Assembly (NCBI GenBank): GCA_951406725.2
Contig: OX597832.1
Coordinates: 36,518,001 to 36,582,000, forward strand
Length of the DNA: 64,000 nucleotides
Source: Octopus vulgaris
Lineage: Eukaryota
Direction: 5' to 3'
Under the pieces are notes generated by a model. That model was not told the origin of the DNA and made no database searches. It worked only from the letters and a program-made list of their open reading frames with translations. Both the position numbers and the translations under genes were made by a program. Numbering within the stretch: position 1 is the first letter of the stretch; each line of letters starts with the position of its first letter. This document shows positions 16,570 through 62,788 of this stretch, in pieces.

Positions 16570-19098
16570 TGTGTATATTAATATGTTTTGGCCAGATGCA
16601 TCTGCTGTCATCTGGTTAGCAAAGAGCGAGAGAAAAATAAGGAGAGATAAGTGTTAATAATGTGAGGTAAAAAGAAAGTTATTATGCTAAGATGCTGTCA
16701 AGTGGTTAGTTCAAAAGGGAAACAGAGAGAGAGAGAGAGAGAGAGATTGTGTGTGTGTGTGTGTGTGTGTGCTAGTACTGAGAGGCAAAGGAAAAGGTAT
16801 TGCTGTTACATTGTGTGGTTACTTAGTTGGAGAAAGAACTAGAAAGTAGAGAGAGATATAAACATGTTAAATGCAGGGGCGTGTGGTATAGTTGAAGTGA
16901 GAGGTAAAGAGAGAGAGTGTCAACTGAAAGGAGCCCGGGAATGGAGAGCAGTTTCATGAATTTATATGTAGTATAACAGAATATTGTGACAGGCAATAAG
17001 AATAAAAGTTTAGTTGTTTTTTACAGGTTTTAATGTTCAACCATTTCTATACGTTGTAGATATTTTGTAAGTAAAAGACAGGTTGGTGGTAACTAAGCTT
17101 TCATATAGGTTTATGGTAATAACCTTGAAGGTAAAAGATAGGAAAATAAAAAAAGGGCAAAGAACAAAGAAGTAAAGAGAAAGTAAAAGAAAGGAAAATG
17201 GAAACTATAGGAATCCAACAGTTGTTGTTTCAAGTTAAATCAAAGTGAAATAACCTTAGTAAATAGCTGTTATTGTTACTTTTACCTTTTTTACGTGTAG
17301 CAGCCCAAAGGCTGAGTCCATGCTGGGGCACCGCAATTATTTAGGTTTTTTTTAAAAGTATAATATGATAGATAAGAAGGTACATATAGGAAGAGATTGA
17401 GTGACGGCCCCTTCAATATTGCCTGGGTGAATTTTTACATCTTTTAGAATCAAAGGTTTCAGAAAAATATACAGTTTCATCATACTATTTTCAAAATAAT
17501 CGTAGAATTTCCACGGGTCCTATTAGTAATCAAATATTATAATTTGCTACTAATTCACTGGTGAAGATGCGTGGCTCAGTGGTTAGAGTGTCACTCACAA
17601 TCATGAGGTAGTGACTTAGATTCCTGGACCTGACTCTGTGTTGTGGTCTTGAGTAACGTCACTGGTGCCAAGCTGTATGCATGGGCATCTGCTGGTCTTC
17701 CACAAACAACCTACCCAGACTTGTGCCTCAGAGGGTAACTTTCTAGGTGCAATCCCATGGTCATTCATGACCAAAACAGTTCTTTACCCTTTTTACTAAT
17801 TCACCAATATAGAATGTTTGAAGCATCTCTCATATTTGGTAAACTCCTTGCTACAATTCTCCACAAAGCCATTTTTTAAAAATTAATCTTCTACTGCACT
17901 TTCACTCTCTTTTTTTTTTTTAGCTGACAATTTTAATTATCAGAATGTAATTAAAATTTATATTTATAAATATTTTCATCTTTTTCAAAATGGTAATATT
18001 AATTATAATTCTTTACGTTTCTTTATTTTCATTTCTGGTTGCTATTTTTCTTGCTCCTGTACTTATGTATACATATGTATGCACACGCATACATACATAC
18101 ATACAGTATATATATGTATATATGCATACATATCTATAGATACAGGTACACATATATACATATATCTGTACACACACATATCTATATACATGTACATAGA
18201 TATATATATAACAATAAATTAAATATATATGTAGTGAAAGTGCATGGCTTAGTGGTTAGGGTGTTGCATTCATGATTGCAAGATAGTGGGTTCGATTCCC
18301 AAATTTTATGGGTGAGTGTATTAAATTATATAAGGCACTAAAAGAGAATGATTCTCCCCAGATACAACAGTATATATATATATGCGGGAGTGTGAATGTG
18401 TGTATATATATATACACACACACACATATGTATACATGTATAGTTATATAAGTGTCTAAATATATATGTATTATATTACGTGTATGCATATAAACACCTA
18501 TGTCTATATGAGGATGAAGTTACGTACATACACATATTTGTGTGTGTGTATGTGCATGTATGTATACATGTTTGTGTGTGTATGTATGTAGACATGAACG
18601 CAGGAGGTTTATGTCTATGTATTGTGAGAATATGGTTGTGTGTATTTTTTATCTTTTCTTTTTTTTCTTTTCCTATCTATTAGAGTAACTTCCCTTTTAT
18701 TCACCGGTCTTTCATAGCATCTGTTGCCATTAATAGCCGGCAAAAATGCATCGTAGCTCTTCGCTCTGACATTCGAAACTCCGAGTACTATAATGACAAC
18801 TTTTTACTGTTTGTTATAAATTATAATATATATAAATATCATCTATTTATCTAATATCAAAGTCTCATTTTTTTGTTGTTACTTTTTATTATCAAATTAC
18901 CTCCTGTACGCCTGGAGCATTCTCTCTAAGAGGCTAGTACAGACTGTATTGAATAGTTGCTATTAATCGGTTGAGGACTTTCTCCCACAGAAGAATCTAA
19001 TATAGATCCTTACATAATACTGTTCTATATTCAAGAGATGAGGAATTATGTACATTATTTACAATTGACAGATATTTGTCCTCATCTTGTTTGTTGTT

Positions 19099-19144
19099 AA
19101 CACAACGTTTTGGCTGATATACCCTCCAGCCTTCATCGGGTGTC
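19099..19144 (-). ncRNA. Minimal type I hammerhead ribozyme motif, family 1 (mutated: U4C, G12A)
   Basis: Reads GACAC-CCGAUGA-A-GGCUG(GAGGGUAUAU)CAGCC-AAAA-CG-U-U-GUGUU. Stems I and II pair, and stem III is the palindromic ACGU. Confidence 0.78.
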
Positions 19145-19425
19145 TTGGGGAAATTTCGAACCTGGGTTCTCATTCCTAAGGTATTTTTTGATGTTATTAT
19201 TCAGGTCACTGCCTGGAATCGAACTCGAAATCTTGGGGTTAGTAGTCTGCACTCTTAACCACTACGTCATATTCCCATGGGCATATGACCTAGTGATTAA
19301 GAGCGCGGGCTACTAATTCCAAGATTCCGAGTTCAATTCCAGGCAGTGACCTGAACAACAACAACAACAGCAACAACATCGAAAAATACCTTAAGAATGA
19401 GAATCCAGGTTCAAAATTTTCTCAA

Positions 19426-19471
19426 GACACCTGTTGAAGGGTGGAGGGTATATCGGCCGAAACGTAGTGTA
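19426..19471 (+). ncRNA. Minimal type I hammerhead ribozyme motif, family 1 (mutated: A6U)
   Basis: Reads GACAC-CUGUUGA-A-GGGUG(GAGGGUAUAU)CGGCC-GAAA-CG-U-A-GUGUA. Confidence 0.75.
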
Positions 19472-19530
19472 TAACAACAAGCAAGATGAGGACAAATATT
19501 TGTCACTTGTAAATAATGTAGATCCTTACA

Positions 19531-20805
19531 ATATTGATTACTTAATGAAAAACATACCATCCAAGGAACTATAGTCTAAAAAACTACTGGAGAAAATTAC
19601 AGATCTTATTAAACATATGAGATAAAAGGCCTTCCATTACAACACTGAAGAGACTATCACAGAGAAGATACACCATGAAATTAAATCAAAGAGATTTCCT
19701 CCCAAAATCAAGGACTCAGAAGACTTCGAAACAGATCTACTGAAGCTTATAAACAAAACCAAATTTCATAAGTCCTTTAACACTTTACAACAGAAACTGA
19801 AAAAAGACATTAAAAACTAAAAAAAAAAACAGCACTTTTTTCTGATAAAACCAAGAACTTATAACTTGTAGACAACAGCACATACTCACAACTCCTACAT
19901 AACAATGTTATTAGTAATTTGACTAAAGCTAGACTGCAAGTTTATAACGACATTAATAAAAAAGCTAGTATCATTGCCACTAGGTTTAAATAAAAAAAAA
20001 AAATAGAAATCCCCCCCAAAAAAGAAGGCCTTTATAACTATTAAGGACCGTAAAAAGTTCCTAACTAATCCTCAATGCAGACTAATGAACCCTGCAAAAT
20101 CAGAAATTGGTATAATTTGTAAGGAAATTTTAATAAAAATCAATGTTAAAGTTAGAAGGGCAACTGATTTAGTAGAATGGTTCAATAGTACAGAAGTTAA
20201 CTGATTTAAAGCAATTAGAAATAAGAATAAAGCAAGATTTACAGAATTTGATATTGTAGATTTCTGTGCATCTATTTCTAGAAAACTGCTAGATAAAGCC
20301 CTCACTTTTGCAAGCGATTTCACAGAGATTAGTGAACAAGATAAGGATATAATCCTCCATGCTAGAAAGACCTTACTCTTCAACGAGAACACAGAGTGGG
20401 TCAAGACAGCAGACTCAGTGGGTTCTTTCGATGTGAGCATGGGGTCATATGGAGCAGGCATATATGATCTCATTGGGCTGTTCCTGCTTGACACGTTAGG
20501 AAAAGCTTTTCCTGGTGTATATTTCACTATTTATAGGAACGATGCTCTAGCTTCAGCTAAGAAGACCAATGGACCAGTGCAAGATCACTTAAGGAAGGAT
20601 ATTATCCATCTTTTGAAAACGTTTGATCTTAGCATAATGATACCAATCTGATGGTTGTCAATTTCCTTGACATATTTCTAGATTTACAAAAGAAAATTTA
20701 CAAATCCTATGGAAAGCCCAACAATAGACTTAATTATATTAATGTAGGTTCCTGCCAACCCACCCCCGTAGTGTTTAAGAATTTAGTTAAGAATATTAGT
20801 AAGGA
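19531..20805 (+). pseudogene. Decayed Penelope-like element reverse transcriptase ORF; its first codons lie at 19002-19014, before the nested insertion
   Basis: Frameshifted translation gives DPYNIDYLMKNIP...LLEKITDLIKHMR*KAF, FITIKDRK.F..NPQCRLMNPAKSEIG, FTEFDIVDFCASISRKLLDKALTFA, FDVSMGSYGA, IYRNDAL (YRDD decayed), VNFLDIFLDL and KPNNRLNYINVGS. These are motifs of PLE RTs common in marine invertebrates. The ORF is 3'-truncated. Confidence 0.85.
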
Positions 20806-21107
20806 TATATATTTGCAGAGGAAGGCCTACTTTTTAGTGACAGCCATGATTGTCACATGCTGATGACGGGTCCGTGTGTATCATAGGTTGAAGACGGGAA
20901 GGATGGCTTCCCTTTGCAAATACTGATAGGGCACAGAAAGTGTGTCTATAGCCTGCTGGAGGAGGTGTCCTCCTGGGGCTACAAGCTACAGTAGCATCCA
21001 CCCTTAGGGGTTAGCCATATTTAAATGGCAAATATACCTCACGATGTGTTGCAGCTACTGTTTATTCCTCACTCAGAGATTTGTTTTTGCTTATATATTT
21101 ATATCTA

Positions 21108-36980: not shown

Positions 36981-39240
36981 CAGTAGTGTTCCCCAACTGT
37001 TTTTCACAAATGTTTCCCTAAAAAGCATTTGGATGCATACTACTACTTCTGCGTCAAATGCTTTCCTTTTGTAATAAATTTAGTGTTTTTGATTGAATTT
37101 AAAATAAATCTAAACAATTTTATTACACATAAATGTACATTTTTATCAATGAAAAATAGAAATGAAGTATTATTAATTATGTATTAATGTGATTAGTATA
37201 GGAATAATTAAAACAACACACATTCTTCATGTGATCCCTGTGATTGATGGCCATCAGCAATTTTTGTGATATTTGGTTTTCAAATTTGATGAGTCGTTAA
37301 GTTACTCTACTATTCATGGTCAAAATTTGATTTACTGCACTAAAACCTTTTTCCACCACATCAGAGGATCAAAAAGCATTTAAAATATCTTGACTGCATT
37401 CCACAATATAGACTACGTTGCAATCACATTTTACATAAGCTTTGATTTTCAAAAATTGTTATTCTAGTTTGTAGATAATGTTTTTGTTCTTCTATTTTGT
37501 ATGCAAATAAGTTTTTTACCCAGTCGGGAATTCTTTCTTTAATCAAGTTATTAAGTCTTGCCTCAGTATCTTCCATCGGTTCTTTTAAAGGTCTTTTAAA
37601 GGATCTTTGTCTGTAAATAATTGTGAAAGGCTTTCCATTGATGGCAACTAACAGATTGCCATCCTACCAAGGTTTCGCTTGTAAAATTCAATTTTACTTA
37701 TAAAATGTTTGACAGCATTCTTTGTGTGAATCAGATTAAAATTGTTTCCTTGCATTTGCAAATTGAGGTTGTTCATCTTGTCTTAAATATCACCTAAATA
37801 ACTCAATATCTCCATAAATAAAGTCAGTGTCTTTTTTTTTTTTTGCTAGTTTCATTGTGATTTATAAGTAAGAATTCAACTATTGTGTCATAAAGGTAAA
37901 AAAAAGACGTATTTCAAACAGGTTCCTTTTGAGGCTCCATCAAACTTCACTGTCAAGAAATTGTTTTAAAATTTCCACTATTCTCTTCACTTAATTGACA
38001 AAACAGCTTACCATTTAAGGTCCAAACTTTGGTTTTGTTAAGAGTAACTATTACTAAGGCCAGGATTGAAGGCAGTTGCTTACCAAGCTTTTTAATCACA
38101 GGATGTTGCCATTAAATTACACAGTGAACTGCAAATAAACTAGGCTCTTCCTTTCACTTCCTTTCTCATATGACACCAGATCAGCTTGGCGACCTGTCAG
38201 TATTTGGTGCACCATCAATTGCATGATATCCTTCTGCTTCAAAAGGGTTTACATTTATCTTCAAAGTAACTGTTAAAAGTCTGAAACTTATTTCTCCCTT
38301 TGTATCCGTTTTCAACGATTTGCAGAAAAGTATTTTTCCATAATTTTCTTTTTTAACAAAACACACGTAAGGCACCAATGAAGCTTTGTTCCACCGTACT
38401 TTTGATTGGTCAGGTTGTCTTCCAAATTCTGTCCTCTTAAGTTTCAATATCCTTATCTATTTCATCAATCCGTTGAGAACCAGAATTATTGCAGAAAGAA
38501 AACAGTTTTAAGATATGTGTATCCTGATAAAAATTTCAGAAGCTGAAAGTGTTATTAGTAAATATATATTAGTGACAGAGGCTGTATTAATACCGAGAAA
38601 TAATATTTATCCCCACTTAAATGTGGATGTTCTATTAGAACAAAATATACTGCAGGAGATACCATGAGAGAAATTCACATAATTGGCTTTTGGGGCAAAA
38701 TGCACTCATTTATATTGCTAGCAATATAACCAAGAGTGCATTTGGCACCAAAAACCAATATGAGGGGTTTTCTCAGGGTATCTACTGCAGTATCGTTTGT
38801 TCTAACAGAGCATTCATGTTTACGTGGGGATAAATATTACTTCCTAGTGTTGTTAATGTCTCACCAACTATGTTTAGTTTTCCACATTTAGCTATTAGTT
38901 GTGATATCTTGTATGAAGCAATATGACAGTTGTCAAGTTTTGGGGCCTCTTTCAAATGTCTCCTTTATCTTTTTTGTGGCTGTAAAACATCATATTGAAC
39001 ATCTTTCTGGATGTTTTCTCTAAAAGTGCTCTTTTAGAGCTTAATTTGAGAAAACAATTTTTGGAAATAAAGGCACATAGGTTATCTGAAAGATAGAGCA
39101 GCAAATCCGTATTTGCAGGCAGTTTACATAATATTGGTAAACCTTGGTTTTATTCTTTTTCTCTTTTTTGTTATTGGCAGAGCTACTTGAATGATTTTCA
39201 TCGTATATTTCTACTTGCTTATAATGATAGGAAAGATCTA
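36981..39240 (-). mobile_element. Decayed hAT (Charlie/Buster-type) transposon with transposase pseudogene
   Basis: Minus-strand remnants are ASYKISQLIAKCGK, FGRQPDQSKVR..KILFCKSLKTDTKGE, DGAP, AVHCVI, SKGTCL, YLGDI*DKMNNLNLQMQG and terminal HQSQGSH. TIR-like CAGTAGTGTTCCCCAAC lies at 36981. The right boundary is uncertain. Confidence 0.8.
38570..38870. mobile_element. About 300-bp fold-back MITE inserted in the hAT transposase
   Basis: The whole segment is an imperfect palindrome centred on TATATTGC|TA|GCAATATA at 38711-38728, for example AATATTTATCCCCAC / GTGGGGATAAATATT. TA is present at both ends. Confidence 0.8.
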
Positions 39241-41733: not shown

Positions 41734-41864
41734 CACTTACAGCACCTAGGTTTCCCAAGCAGTCACCCATCTAAGTACTAACTAGGCTCAACATTGCTTA
41801 ACTTCGGTGATTGGATGAGAACCGGTGCTTTCAACGTGATTTTCAACGTGATATGGCCGTAAGC
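41734..41864 (-). pseudogene. RNA5S: 5S rRNA pseudogene, full length, with a 12-bp internal duplication
   Basis: The reverse complement reads GCTTACGGCCATATCACGTTGAAA...GCACCGGTTCTCATCCAATCACCGAAGTTAAGCAATGTTGAGCCTAGTTAGTACTTAGATGGGTGACTGCTTGGGAAACCTAGGTGCTGTAAG, the metazoan 5S pattern with many CpG-type transitions. TTTCAACGTGAT is duplicated at 41829-41852. Confidence 0.92.
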
Positions 41865-43518: not shown

Positions 43519-44747
43519 TCTCTGGAATTCTCAACCACTTCCTTAATAATCCGTGCACTGAGCAGGTAGTTCCAATGACTGAACAAACGGCATAGTCATT
43601 TATCAAAACTGATGCAACATTCACTTGAACATTATTCTATCCCTTGATGTAATCACATTTAATAGAAATGTTTTTCAGAGCATACCACCATTTCCATTCA
43701 GGTTACTGGTTTATGCAACTCTACTTTCCACCGAGCAGGCAAGTCTCAACAGAGCTTTGGTGACCAATTGTTGCATTTCACCTGTTTCTATGCTTAAATG
43801 CGACATGGTCATGCAAGGCTAGTGATAGGCGTATAAAATATTCATGAATAAAGCAGCCTTGAGGATAGTGGTTTGTTTTAACAGTGCGGAATCTATAACC
43901 ATATATAACAACTATATATGAATAGCTGGTGACGTTTAGTTGGTTGTTTAGTTGGCTTAGTGCCAGTCTTGTTACAATTGAAGTGTTGCTGCTTCAGATT
44001 CTGCTACCAGTTGTACTTGTGTTCTTGATATTTCTCATTGACTCAGTCCAGCTAACAGCAAATCGGTCCCATGGTGTGGTGCAATTACTGCTGCAAATAG
44101 TGTACAAAGTGTATTGAGGGAAACATCTGTATCATCCACAAATGCAATAAGTGCACTACTGTGATATGTGTATGTGTGCATGTATGTGTACATATTGACG
44201 TGTCTCTGTGTGTGTATATATGTATATATATATATGATTAGCAGACGTTACAGTGACTCAAGTGCTGAAAGTTTCATGTGTTAGTACTTATCAAACTAGC
44301 TTCCAATTAGGTGGGTTTTCCATTTTTAAGGACCCTATTCCATTTTCCTGCTTATATTACCAAACCCATGTGTGTGTCATTGACTGGTATAGTAAAACTG
44401 CTACAAATATAAACACAAACACCAGCAATCAATACTGTTGTGAATCTATGCATCTTTGTGTGCCTCTGCTGTCGATAATGTCAAATGTATTTGTCTTACT
44501 TCAATGTATTGGAAACGATAATGAAATGAAATGAAAGTATCAACATTGTCATTGCATCATCGTCGTCATCTCTTAAATACTTTGTATCTTGAAAACTTGT
44601 CATTCCTTAGTTTAGCTCCTTTTCAGTTTCACTCCCTGGGCATTGTACAGCCTGGGGCTCAGAGCACAATACCAGTGGGATTGAAATGAAAACCGAAAAA
44701 CATGCCGTCCCCTCAAAATATGGGTAGACAAACATGGCAAATCTGTG

Positions 44748-45143
44748 ATACGAGGAGGTTTTGATAAATCGAGTATAGCTGATCATGTATGGGAAAATGG
44801 AGACCAGCTCCCCGATGAGGGATGAAGTTAAAATAATAGACAGAGAACACCACTGGAAATTACGAAACCTAAAAGAAGCAGCACATATGCTAGGACACAA
44901 CAACCTCCTAAGCAGACCGAGTGCAGATGTGAGCAGCATATGGGAACCGGTATTAAGGAAGAATAGGAAAATATTAGATTTATAAGCCCTAAAATTCACT
45001 CCATAATTGCCCACGGGTATATGGCGCAGTTCGAAATTTCGCCCAAGACACCTGATGAAGGCTGGAGGGTATATCAGCCGAAACATGTTAACAACAAATA
45101 AGATGAGGATAAATATCCGTCAAGTGTGAATAATGTAAATAAT
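44748..45143 (+). mobile_element. 5'-truncated Penelope/Poseidon-type PLE: GIY-YIG endonuclease C-terminus plus internally deleted pLTR with hammerhead
   Basis: Reads RGGFDKSSIADHVWENGD..(frameshift)..DEVKIIDREHHWKLRNLKEAAHMLGHNNLLSR with stop at 44985. This is followed by CCCACGGGTATATGGCGCAG|TTCGAAATTT and the same hammerhead and tail as the 19-kb and 62-kb elements. Confidence 0.82.
45047..45089 (+). ncRNA. Hammerhead motif, family 1 (intact CUGAUGA and GAAA; short deletion at the cleavage site and stem I)
   Basis: Reads GACAC-CUGAUGA-A-GGCUG(GAGGGUAUAU)CAGCC-GAAA-CAUGUU. Confidence 0.75.
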
Positions 45144-49449: not shown

Positions 49450-52400
49450 TCGACTAATTTTTCACATTCTCGTTTAAACTCGGTTGTGTAAATATTTGCG
49501 GCCTGGGGTTGTATTGGAAGCAAGGCTACCTCCTTTAAAGACCTTGGGTCACATCGTTTGGATGTAGTTGTAATTACTGAATCCAAACTGAGTGGGCTGC
49601 AGGCTTTTTCGCCCCTTCTAAATGGCTACGAGAAATACGTTTTTCCCTGTCGACCTGGAGGGGCTGGAGGAGTGGCAGTGCTGGTCAGAAAAAACCTGGA
49701 TTTAGAGATTAGAACTGTCTTTATAGATCCGGAAGGCAGGTTGGTCGTTTTGGATGTGACGCACAGCAGTGGTAAAGTGTTCAGGCTGGTCGTTGTCTAT
49801 GCTCCCTGCGAAGGAAAAGCCGGGCAGAAAGATTACTTCAAAAGCCTAGTGAATTTTCTTGGCACATCGAACACGTTAGTATTGCTAGTTGACTTCAACA
49901 TAATTTGCGATGCACGCGTAGATTATGTTGGCTCGAGAAAGAATAGGAGGGGATTACCTCACCTCAACGATCTGCTAAGTTGTTTCAAGTTGGCAGATCG
50001 ATTCAGACTGGACCACCCAGACACTCCAGTGTGGACCTGGGCAAGAAACGATGGGTCGTCCAGATGTTACATAGATAGAATCATAACTAGAAGGAAAGAT
50101 AAGAAAATACTTAGCTATCCACAACACCATATCATCAGCTACAGCGATCACAAATTAGTGACCTGTACACTCAACATAGATAACGTGTAGACGAGGTATC
50201 GGTTACTGGAAGCTAAACAAGTCACTATTGGACTGTGAAGCCTACAGGAATTGGATTAAACAATTAGTGATGAGGGCGTTAACCGGATCCATTATCAACA
50301 ACAAATGGTGGTACGCCCTGTAAAGAGCCATCAAATTTGAGTCAATTAGGTTTAGCAAAGAATTAGCTAGTGCTAGAAACAAAGTAGAAAAGGAACTAGT
50401 TAAGGCAATAGATGAGGCAATGAGGTCAGGCAGTACATTGAAAGTGTTAGCAGCGAGGTTGGCACTCGACCAACATCTCAAAGCTAAAGATGAAGGGTGC
50501 ATTGTCAGGGCTAAGATCCATGCAATGAGACAGGAAGGGATCAACACAGCCGGATGGGCCCGGGTGGTAGAAGGCCAGCGTGGCAACAACTCAACCATTC
50601 GATCTTTGACGGACCCAAATGGTCGATCAGTAAACGAACCCATGGAGATGTGCAAGGTGTTTCACGATCATTTCGCCCAGCTATTTGGGAGGAGCGGTGG
50701 ACTGGAGCGTGGGGAGAAGCTCGCAGACTTCCTAGCCGGTTTGCCGCGTCTATCGAGGCCGGATGCGGAATCTTGTGAGGCGCCGATCACAGCCAAGGAA
50801 GTCGAGGATGTGTTGGCAGACTGCGGCGGGGACAAATCGCCAGGACTCGATGGTCTGCCTTACGAACCCTATAGTAGCATGCCAGATTTGTTTGGGCACC
50901 TACTTGAATGCGTGTACACCAACTGGCAGCAGAACAGGAGAATTCCTAAGTCTGTGAGCTGAGGGGTGGTAGCGCTGTTAAGAAAGGACCCAAACAAGGG
51001 GGATTTAATTGATAATTTTCGGCCCATCACTCTGCTTAACTCAGAGTTGAAGATTTTGGCCAAGGTCTTAGCAAAAAGGTTGGTGCGGGTCGTGGGTGAA
51101 CTTGTTGGCGAGGCGCAAACTTGCGCCATCCCTGGAAGGACCATCCACGACAATCTCCACTTTCTACGCTATGCCTTAGAAAGGGTAAATAGGATTCCTG
51201 GCAAGGGTGGGGCTATGGTCCACTTGGACCAATCGAAAGCGTTCGATAGGGTGGACCATCAGTATCTGGCGGCGGTACTCGCGGCGGCTGGCTTCGGCCT
51301 GACCTTCCACGGATGGATCAATGCTTTATACAGCAACATCGAATCCGTAGTTCAGGTGAACGGTTTCTTTTCGGAGCCGTTCCGCATTGAACGTTCAGTA
51401 CGTTAAGGGTGTCCTCTCTCCCCGCTTCTCTACGTTTTGGCCCTCGAGCTGTTGCTGAGGAGGTTGGAAACTATGAGGGGCACTCCGCAAGATCTATGGT
51501 GCGGAAAGTCAGCTACGGTGTATGCAGACGACATCACCGTCATTGTATCCCGAGTCGAGCACCTACAGTGGGTGAGTGAGGCCTCAAGGGACTACGAAGT
51601 GGTGGCAGGAGCGAAAGTCAACCGGGATAAGTCGATGTCTTCCGACAGCATCGTAGGACGTTGGATGGAAGGGCCAGTGAAAATGCTTGGAATCTGGTTA
51701 AGTCCAGATCTCCAGATAGAGAAGAATTGGAGCGAGGTGGCGAGAAAGGTGGCTCTCCTAACTCAGACCTGGTCTGAGCGGAAGCTGTCCTTGAAAGGGA
51801 GGGCGGAGGTTGCAGAGGTGTTTATCGCCTCTGTAATCACTTACCGCCTGACCGTCGTGCCTTGCCCCGATTCGTGGCTGAACAAACTGGAACGCATGCT
51901 CTTTCGCATTTTGTGGAGGGGCAGCAGACCTCTTGTAAGGCGCTCTATTTGCTGCCAAAACCCGCTGAAGGGTGGGTTAGGGATGCCGTGGCTAAAAATG
52001 CGTAGACATGCGCTCAGGCTTAGGCACCTCTGACTTTACCTGGACGGTGAGCAGGTGTGGTCTCCGTTCGTCAGGCTGTTATTTCCACAGTTCACATCGT
52101 TTACCAAACTGAACCCATGGATCAAGTGTAGACCGAGGTTGGGCGTGTGACATGTAGAGTGCCATCAGGCACTCATGCTTCTCTCCAAGTTGGGCAACGC
52201 CGGTGGCGGGGGTACTACCTCGTTCTTCTATAGAGGGTTAGTAGAGTTTAAGTGTGACGACGTCCTGGGAGAAACCCTGGGCTTCGACGAAAATCAACTG
52301 GCCAGCCTGTTCCAAAGAACATTCGGTCCGGGGCCTATGGATAATTACCAAAAGTCCCTGGCTTGGCAATGTTACAGAGGAGCTTTACTGGTTCGACATG

Positions 52401-52823
52401 GGTGTGCACCTTCGCCGGTTTGTGCAAGATGTGAGAGGGACAGTGAAACTGTCCTGCACGTGATTGTGCAATGCCCCAAGGTGACTGAACTCTGGGCTTA
52501 TGTCGAATAACCTGCTGTCGCATTCGAGAAAAGTACCACTGTTGAGCGAATCTATAATTAATATAGTTCCGCCAACCTCCCTGAATAGGGAGGAGCAAGC
52601 CTGTTTTCTCTCGGTTGTTGCTGTGGCAAAAGAAGTAGTGTGGAAGACGAGAGTGAAAGGAATTGCAACAGGCATGTTTATCTCCAGTCTCGAGCTAATC
52701 AACTTTTTCATTTTCCACATGAAACGGAAAATAAGGCTGGAGAAGAAATGCCTGTCGCAAAGTGTGTTTCGTAAAAGATGGAAGTCTATAGCAAGTATGT
52801 TGCGAGTGAAAGAACCTGTTTAA
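49450..52823 (+). pseudogene. Disrupted LINE ORF2: AP endonuclease, reverse transcriptase and C-terminal CCHC
   Basis: APE motifs GCVNICGL, VITESK, GGVAVL, VVVYAP, VDFN, YIDRI, SDHKLV and YWKLN. RT motifs KSPGLDGL, NFRPITLLNSELKILAK, LDQSKAFDRVDH, R*GCPLSPLLY, VYADD and GGLGMP. Zn motif CARCERDSETVLHVIVQC. Multiple in-frame stops and frameshifts. Confidence 0.93.
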
Positions 52824-61724: not shown

Positions 61725-61778
<54 letters not shown>

Positions 61779-61905
61779 GGAGCGTAAAAGGGATGTTATC
61801 CTGGCAGATACTGTATTATCTCCCAGATTGGTTTTGATGCCAGCTAATCACTGCGGTCCAATATATAGTACTCAAGCTTAGAGTTACTGGTACTGGTAAA
61901 CTTCA

Positions 61906-62325
61906 TTATTTGCAATGGACAGATAGTGTCCTCACTTTGTTATTAGCACAACTTTTTGGTTGATGTACTTTCCAGCTTTCATCTGGTGTTCTGATAGAAT
62001 TCCAAACCCAACCCTTTTTTTGACTAATGGAGTACTCTGTTCTCATTCCTAAGGTATTCTGTTTTGCAGTTGTTTTTTTTTTTCTGTTGATATTAAGTCC
62101 CAGGCAGGGACTTGGGAAATAATATCAACAGAAAAAAATAATGTCAGCAAAAAAAAAAACCTTAGGAATGAGAACAGAGTACCCCCATTATTCAAAGGCG
62201 TCCGAAATTACACCAGAACACCTGATGAATGCTGGAGAGCACATTAGCCAAAACATTGTGGTAACAACAAACAAGGTGAGGACATTGTAAATAATGTAAT
62301 AATTCCTCATCTCAAAAATATAGAT
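61906..62325. mobile_element. Second fold-back PLE-derived element (related subfamily) with a hammerhead motif in each arm, 12-bp TSD
   Basis: Arms are inverted around AAGTCCC-AGGCA-GGGACTT (62095-62113). TGGTAAACTTCA is repeated at 61894-61905 and 62326-62337. It shares CCTTAGGAATGAGAAC, the hammerhead and the AATTCCTCATCTC tail with 19015-19518. Confidence 0.85.
62217..62262 (+). ncRNA. Hammerhead motif, family 1 (CpG-decayed); a more degenerate inverted copy lies at 61945-61990
   Basis: Reads AACAC-CUGAUGA-A-UGCUG(GAGAGCACAU)UAGCC-AAAA-CA-U-U-GUGGU. Confidence 0.65.
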
Positions 62326-62788
62326 TGGTAAACTTCACTCATTGGGTACATGTATCTATAGTTAGTATATATATATATATATATATATATAGATATAATC
62401 GTCATCATTTAACACCCATGCTAGCATATATATGTATATATATATTGTGTGTTTTTGATATTTTGTAAGAGTCATAGAGGTTGGTGGGAAAAGTTGAAGT
62501 TATATTTGTAGGATGTAAACATTTATAATGTTTATAAAACTACAGATTGTATGGTTCATAGAATGGCCAGTTAAGGGCTGGAGATAAATAGCCAGACGTA
62601 TTATATAGATGACTTATCTTTGCTCTGTGTGTGTGTTAATCTATGACATAATCTGGCTACAGATGTGTTAGATGTCATTACCCATGTCACTATAGACTGC
62701 TATGCTCCATGAACTTGACCACTACATTATACAAAGTGCTGCTAGAACTATTGATATATACAACTATTGCTATATATGTGTGTATGTA

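Follow-up and report, generated by a model that had tools for sequence, protein, structure and literature searches.

A probable old, 5'-truncated Penelope-like element with inverted pseudo-LTRs and a one-sided tail in Octopus vulgaris

Anatomy of the palindrome

Consider a stretch of 64,000 nucleotides of the Octopus vulgaris genome (contig OX597832.1), here called the window, in which the 444 bases at 61894-62337 consist of two exact 12-mers with an imperfect palindrome of 420 bp between them. The direct repeat TGGTAAACTTCA stands at 61894-61905 and again at 62326-62337, and it cannot be extended at either flank, just as the original prediction of an exact 12-bp duplication had it. The features of the locus are the following.

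61776..61893, no strand: host sequence, a low-copy repeat that took the insertion and resumes at 62338 (62338-62365); from several paralogous contigs in three runs
61894..61905, forward strand: left copy of the target-site duplication, 12 nt, the last 2 nt of which also match the element end; from the exact repeat and paralogous empty sites
61906..62097, reverse strand: short, tailless inverted arm, i.e., the 3' module of the element, with the end AAATAA(TG); from arm alignment
61944..61989, reverse strand: hammerhead motif of the left arm, strongly decayed; from alignment, missed by the descriptor
62095..62113, no strand: turning point with a 7-bp stem and a 5-nt loop, the inner 4-bp stem being 62098-62110; from loose ends before 62098
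62098..62325, forward strand: long arm, a pseudo-LTR-like 3' module with tail; from alignment
62176..62199, forward strand: extra segment specific to the subfamily, 24 nt, with a left-arm counterpart of about 36 nt at 62002-62037; from alignment and loose-end consensus
62217..62262, forward strand: minimal type I hammerhead motif, decayed, with core G12 mutated; from descriptor, alignment and paralogue majority letters
62297..62325, forward strand: one-sided tail, 29 nt; from alignment
62326..62337, forward strand: right copy of the target-site duplication; from the exact repeat

When pairs of 30-nt windows with the same spacing were compared as a control, a 12-mer in common was found in 6 of 8166 pairs, three of these being the 62-kb site itself and the other three belonging to a tandem repeat or a TA run. 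The fold energy of the palindrome corresponds to z = -15.9, and none of 100 shuffled sequences was equally stable. Its two arms differ at 29 of 178 aligned bases (16%) and by 6 gaps. The left arm ends without a tail, and on the right arm the tail begins after AAATAATG, so that a tail on the right arm only, as originally described, is indeed what is present. In this palindrome and in a second one at 19 kb alike, 2 nt of the 12-mer are also element sequence at the end of the short arm.

The turn lies just behind the B box of a tRNA-like head, of which only about 13 nt behind that box remain in the 62-kb insertion, and this agrees with the earlier placing of the fold-back at the end of such a head. 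Close to the turn, in the area 62113-62119, there are 7 unpaired nt on the right side only. The extra segment, which had been taken to mark a diverged subfamily, is present as claimed, with the qualification that it occurs on both arms; it is also the loose-end consensus in 14 contigs of run X11 and 19 of run X2, and is a trait of the family.

Target-site duplication and the empty host repeat

There is no second copy of the host repeat within the 64-kb window, and the comparison was made with paralogous contigs, runs X6-X10 and X12-X17 being excluded from use for their small word share. In one contig from X2 and one from X11, position 61882 is joined to 62331 without the element and with the target present once, one A shorter than either copy in the window. 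In two further X11 contigs the match runs up to 61905, where the left 12-mer ends. Since the two joined contigs may come from two species and yet represent a single locus, they count as one or two independent empty sites. Organism B carries the filled site, with 4 differences over 260 nt, and raw reads of X22 yielded no more than 15 weak matches. No empty orthologous site turned up, organisms C and E being covered by the 24 of 3880 pieces listed. From the single target in the paralogous empty host repeats it follows that the 62-kb duplication is real and, judged on these sites, the 12-mer pair appears to be a true target duplication. A site that already held both 12-mers before insertion, which the original prediction had named as the case that would speak against it, is not what the paralogous empty host repeats display.

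The empty sites bear at the same time on the possibility that a single copy was inserted and only later folded back into a palindrome by host repair or replication. The turn at a short native inverted repeat is compatible with this, as with any fold-back, but the direct duplication brackets both outer ends with no inverted flank, the short arm ends at the usual short end of the family in both palindromes, and the empty host repeat is restored when exactly the insert and one 12-mer are removed. A late fold-back is for these reasons most improbable.

The length of the stagger is a different matter. A fixed 12-nt cut, as originally proposed, is not established, since there are two cases only, each of which has 2 nt of microhomology and is fitted by 10-12 nt, and since the target duplications of rotifer PLEs (Penelope-like elements) are given as 8, 9 and 10 bp, with one copy that has none, in the part of the rotifer report that deals with them (PMC3846280).

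A sister palindrome and an unpaired copy behind an endonuclease remnant

Two other loci in the window carry the same module, one of them behind the remnant of an endonuclease gene.

19003..19530, no strand: sister palindrome with a 12-nt duplication, a left-arm tail, a full tRNA-like head on both arms and a turn at the 5' palindrome of the head; from alignment
44697..44985, forward strand: remnant of a GIY-YIG endonuclease, the C-terminal, frameshifted part of a Penelope/Poseidon-type ORF; from protein comparison
45002..45140, forward strand: unpaired, tailless copy of the module, with a short 5' palindrome, the start of the head, an internal deletion and the hammerhead; from alignment

The 19-kb element has its exact 12-mer at 19003-19014 and 19519-19530, its tail of 38 nt is on the left arm, and its short arm terminates in AAATAATG(TA). 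The palindrome at which it turns is also present in the unpaired 45-kb copy. In one arm, a 53-codon open frame spans the hammerhead and the tail. Since the 19-kb site is the start of a host ORF, the modelled pre-insertion frame, which is open, constitutes no test of the duplication. That ORF, at 19530-20815, is decayed and belongs to another PLE-like family with 35-46% identity to proteins P0005-P0011, the palindrome having been inserted approximately at its start codon; the RT remnant at 20.2 kb was given no name by Pfam.

The unpaired copy is homologous at 45029-45140, with 79-89% identity over 84-118 nt, and this part starts about 45 nt past the stop of the GIY-YIG remnant. Translated with X at the frameshift, the remnant aligns over 94-96% of its length with 3 of 15 candidate proteins, at 59-64% identity; two of the three have an RT domain and the third is named GIY-YIG endonuclease. 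A Pfam search with the remnant itself gave no match. Because the module lies directly behind an endonuclease remnant akin to RT+EN proteins, it is taken to be the 3' terminal repeat of an RT+EN PLE, a link that comes from one locus of the 19-kb-type (sister) subfamily with the RT part truncated away. The order RT, then EN, in P0002-P0003 points to an autonomous partner of Penelope/Poseidon type. At 45002-45030 the head begins about 20 nt past the endonuclease stop with a short imperfect palindrome, after which a deletion extends up to the hammerhead region, and this layout suggests that the tRNA-like head is part of the terminal repeat of the autonomous element. The endonuclease alignment gave no confirmed locus among 188 stretches of metagenome sequence, and a DNA pattern search of metagenome and viral contigs returned nothing.

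Elsewhere in the window there is a 247-bp palindrome at 38597-38843, which is 82% self-complementary and has no match to the PLE-stub family, as well as a decayed LINE at 49492-52800 with AP endonuclease (PF03372) and RT (PF00078).

The hammerhead motif

Five copies in the window have a common layout, in which a stem I of 4-5 bp is followed by the core, A9 has an extra base behind it, stem II begins with a G-C pair and stem III is a palindromic stub. Their consensus is a hammerhead core with all four marks that the relevant part of PMC4209133 gives for the minimal hammerheads of metazoan PLEs, i.e., a short stem I, the extra base after A9, G10.1-C11.1 and a palindromic 15.2-16.2 pair; the difference is that every one of the five window copies is damaged and that they are known from sequence alone. 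Across the copies, 39 of 48 stem cells are paired, compared with 20-64% in slid controls, and there is no compensatory change in the stems of the five copies. The paralogous contigs of three runs provide the stronger evidence for a hammerhead, in that their majority letters restore both G12 (62250, with 62-80% of the summed depth) and stem II (62230 and 62245, with 86-97%).

General searches did not recover the motif. An Rfam scan of the window and two family loci found no hammerhead and no tRNA. The hammerhead descriptor gave no perfect match, missed the left-arm motif and had three matches with one mismatch (two of them within the family) at a background of 0-6 per shuffle, and the fold energies of all five hammerhead copies and of two heads did not surpass those of shuffles (z from -1.3 to +0.8). 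With the five-copy consensus and the paralogue majority letters taken together, the pseudo-LTR appears to contain a minimal type I hammerhead that has decayed in the single copies. The element is identified by this motif and by its link to the endonuclease remnant at 44.7 kb, neither of which was part of the original prediction.

A non-LTR retrozyme was also considered and set aside: the tandem type I hammerhead units of such elements were not found, all three loci in the window being single or inverted.

Turning points and short ends

In unfolded copies of the family, the tRNA-like head passes directly into position 62098, as seen from loose ends in 22 contigs of X2, 16 of X20 and 28 of X11. 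From this it follows that the inner 4-bp stem of the turn is native, whereas the outer 3 bp arose with the inversion. Among the 27 joints listed (15 of 61 and 12 of 17), at least 9 distinct joints run from left to right on the same strand, with offsets from symmetry of -48 to +107 nt, and correspond to other head-to-head copies, each joint being weak evidence with a short side of 21-30 nt where given. Eight listed joints between opposite strands were left out of this count, four of the eight lying within 6 nt of the mirror position, as plain copies do. Two joints, 62059-62107 and 62064-62113, may lie near the centre of the 62-kb element. The variable turning point that had been postulated is thus borne out, both by these joints and by the two different centres in the window.

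The 3' ends were surveyed in a crude manner from 72 short predicted proteins over repeat copies, 43 of which were set aside as belonging to the sister family. Twelve of the remaining 29 proteins (about 5 of them misassigned) end at query residues 41-44, where the tail starts, and nine at residues 51-52, where it ends. AAATAAT is present as two tandem units, and many short ends are found at the second of these, 6-9 nt past the ends in both palindromes. The proposed fixed second end is roughly borne out, in the form of a clustering of short ends within about 10 nt, not at one base but at either of two AAATAAT units. In the sister family itself (P0016-P0086, 43 of the 72 matches), 16 of the 43 contain a related module 2-3 times in tandem, each unit being about 43 codons long, in a manner resembling a retrozyme array.

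The tRNA-like head

Ahead of the hammerhead module there is a pair of Pol III A and B boxes with 1+1 mismatches and a spacing of 33, for which 15 shuffles gave no such match. The boxes in the two 19-kb arms have the same spacing with 1+1 and 2+2 mismatches, and ARAGORN reported no tRNA gene. Six further A/B-box pairs in the window, at 18245+, 33701+, 34748+, 41708-, 48205- and 55607-, are heads of other SINE-like repeats, and on the reverse strand at 41734-41864 there is a 5S rRNA-like copy that scores 84 bits, has a short duplication inside it and adjoins a dispersed repeat.

A family with such a box pair could be a tRNA-derived SINE moved by an ordinary LINE, the palindrome then being due either to twin priming or to two copies inserted separately, head to head. 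In twin priming, the 5' part is inverted and the 3' end is not duplicated. Here, on the contrary, the 3' end is in both arms, and it lacks poly(A) or a simple repeat. Separate insertions, for their part, fit badly with a single duplication pair around the whole and with arms that are both of the same rare subfamily. In addition, the 3' module, with its hammerhead and tail, is of PLE type. The probability of this origin is accordingly judged to be very small.

Three tRNA-derived retroposons of octopus are said to have been described by Ohshima and Okada in 1994, and one of them could be the present family. A search of the literature gave no report of a cephalopod PLE derivative with a tRNA head. 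The supplement of PMC8557442 lists cephalopod PLE families, which may bear on the cataloguing of the present one.

Discussion

The 62-kb insertion is very probably an old, heavily 5'-truncated EN+ Penelope-like element of Penelope/Poseidon type, whose pseudo-LTR is inverted and which has a tail at one side only. The PLE traits described in the cited parts of the literature are an inverted pseudo-LTR, a tail of 30-40 bp at one side, a target-site duplication and junction palindromes (PMC3846280, PMC8557442). The window holds two elements with an inverted, 5'-truncated copy placed head to head and a junction palindrome, the tail at one end being 29 nt at 62 kb and 38 nt at 19 kb, and absent at 45 kb. 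In accordance with the published pattern, a short target duplication surrounds the whole insert. No long ORF was found behind the tail, and the 72 + 2 protein matches are either short frames lying on repeats or the first exons of unrelated gene models. The 62-kb copy is dead. The arrangement is a known PLE signature and not a new mechanism, with an architecture that is already in print: the reproducible integration mechanism of the original prediction is supported, but it is the one already known for PLEs.

The closest counterparts are Pen2a_Av and Pen3a_Av of Adineta vaga, which, according to the sections of the two reports that describe them, have head-to-head inverted 3' modules, a one-sided tail and a short duplication around the whole (PMC3846280, PMC8557442), as well as a junction palindrome and a short palindrome at the 5' end of the pseudo-LTR (PMC3846280). 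The octopus insertion differs from them by having no ORF between the arms, i.e., by its extreme truncation, by a duplication of 12 nt (10-12 with microhomology) instead of the rotifer 8, 9 and 10 bp, by tails of 29 and 38 nt compared with 31 and 30-40, and by the tRNA-like head before the hammerhead. Poseidon PAc of Anolis carolinensis, as presented in the relevant portion of PMC11167929, is similar in its two preferred 3' ends bracketing the tail, its AT-rich targets and a hammerhead about 60-100 nt upstream of the 3' ends. The tail of PAc is within the start of an ORF, whereas the octopus 19-kb arm has its 53-codon frame only, with no long ORF found beyond it. The schistosome SINE-like elements and animal non-LTR retrozymes (PMC6765202; bioRxiv 10.64898/2026.07.22.740005) are also non-coding units with a type I hammerhead akin to those of PLE pseudo-LTRs. 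In the parts of these reports that concern their arrangement they are mainly tandem, whereas the octopus module forms an inverted pair with target-site duplication and tail, and has one copy beside a PLE endonuclease ORF. The Pol III box pair before the hammerhead is the one less ordinary trait of the octopus family, but a Pol III promoter is placed ahead of the hammerhead in the schistosome elements too, by the account in PMC6765202, and this counts against the novelty of the octopus head.

The divergence of 16% between the arms implies that the insertion is old. Both arms depart from the family majority at positions of their own, about equally often, and the right arm is nearer to the 19-kb left arm (11% apart) than to its own partner (15%), a pattern that fits two once near-identical arms decaying independently. 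It is not the pattern of a foldback or MITE-type DNA transposon (Mutator- or Galileo-like), which would move as a ready palindrome with arms already diverged in the master. Such an element would account for long inverted arms with a 12-bp duplication, for exact duplications beside diverged arms, and for one X11 contig, 86% alike, that covers the same centre as the 62-kb element; a palindromic master copy would also explain this contig, and the two joints near the centre may reflect similar copies. Nevertheless, the outer ends are not inverted, the tail is one-sided, the centre varies between copies (19 kb versus 62 kb, and at least 9 joints among those listed), and an unpaired module is found behind an endonuclease ORF. 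We consider a foldback transposon very unlikely and retain the truncated PLE.

With a PLE of this age, the exact duplications call for comment. The chance that a 12-mer stays exact beside arms that are 9-16% apart (non-CpG) is about 0.12-0.14 at 62 kb and 0.33 at 19 kb, and with about 0.04 for both together there is a mild tension with the age of the insertion. The tension is partly explained by the selection of exact repeats, and would also be eased if the arms came from two RNA molecules.

A mechanism by which the palindrome could have arisen starts from the observed anatomy, duplication, native hairpin, endonuclease link and decayed hammerhead. In a first step, the GIY-YIG endonuclease would cut AT-rich DNA in both strands, at positions about 10-12 nt apart. 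In the available in vitro account, the Poseidon protein of a lizard cleaves and extends either strand, with two start sites of reverse transcription on the two sides of the tail (PMC11167929). By analogy, reverse transcription from the outer initiation site would then produce the tailed arm, and would stop at the native 4-bp micro-hairpin behind the B box. What follows could be one of two things. Either the end of the cDNA folds back and copies itself, which we favour by a small margin of belief, or the other end of the DNA primes a second cDNA at the inner site, which then anneals at the hairpin, a course that is possible though we would sooner doubt it. In the single case available, the unpaired centre is on the tailed arm, which fits snap-back. 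Finally, the second arm would end at the tail start and join the target through the 2-nt microhomology, whereupon repair would fill in the duplication.

For the inverted ends of PLEs, the proposals in print are self-priming, endonuclease resolution and two internal start sites; junction palindromes are taken as self-priming in the pertinent passage of PMC3846280, and the tail is attributed to endonuclease resolution in that of PMC8557442. The 62-kb locus is one more example that fits all of these models and decides none of them.

The identification has a value for annotation, in that the family is abundant in the runs examined and resembles a SINE or a foldback element. The open frame of the repeat forms the annotated N-terminus (first exon) of two unrelated Octopus gene models, P0013 and P0014, and these N-termini are probably gene-prediction artefacts or exonised repeats. 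From the match of the peptide to the start of two named Octopus gene models it also follows that the family is present in Octopus.

The tRNA-like head before a PLE hammerhead is the only part that is perhaps worth description at the level of the family. One may speculate, while regarding it as rather unlikely, that the family is a SINE of PLEs, i.e., either a tRNA-headed, Pol III-driven non-autonomous element or an autonomous PLE whose pseudo-LTR has captured a tRNA promoter, moved by Penelope machinery and abundant in octopus genomes, with inversions that prefer the native micro-hairpins of the head and an unpaired centre on the tailed arm. If this were true, thousands of stubs would make it possible to count how often cDNA snap-back and how often second priming had occurred, from sequence alone.
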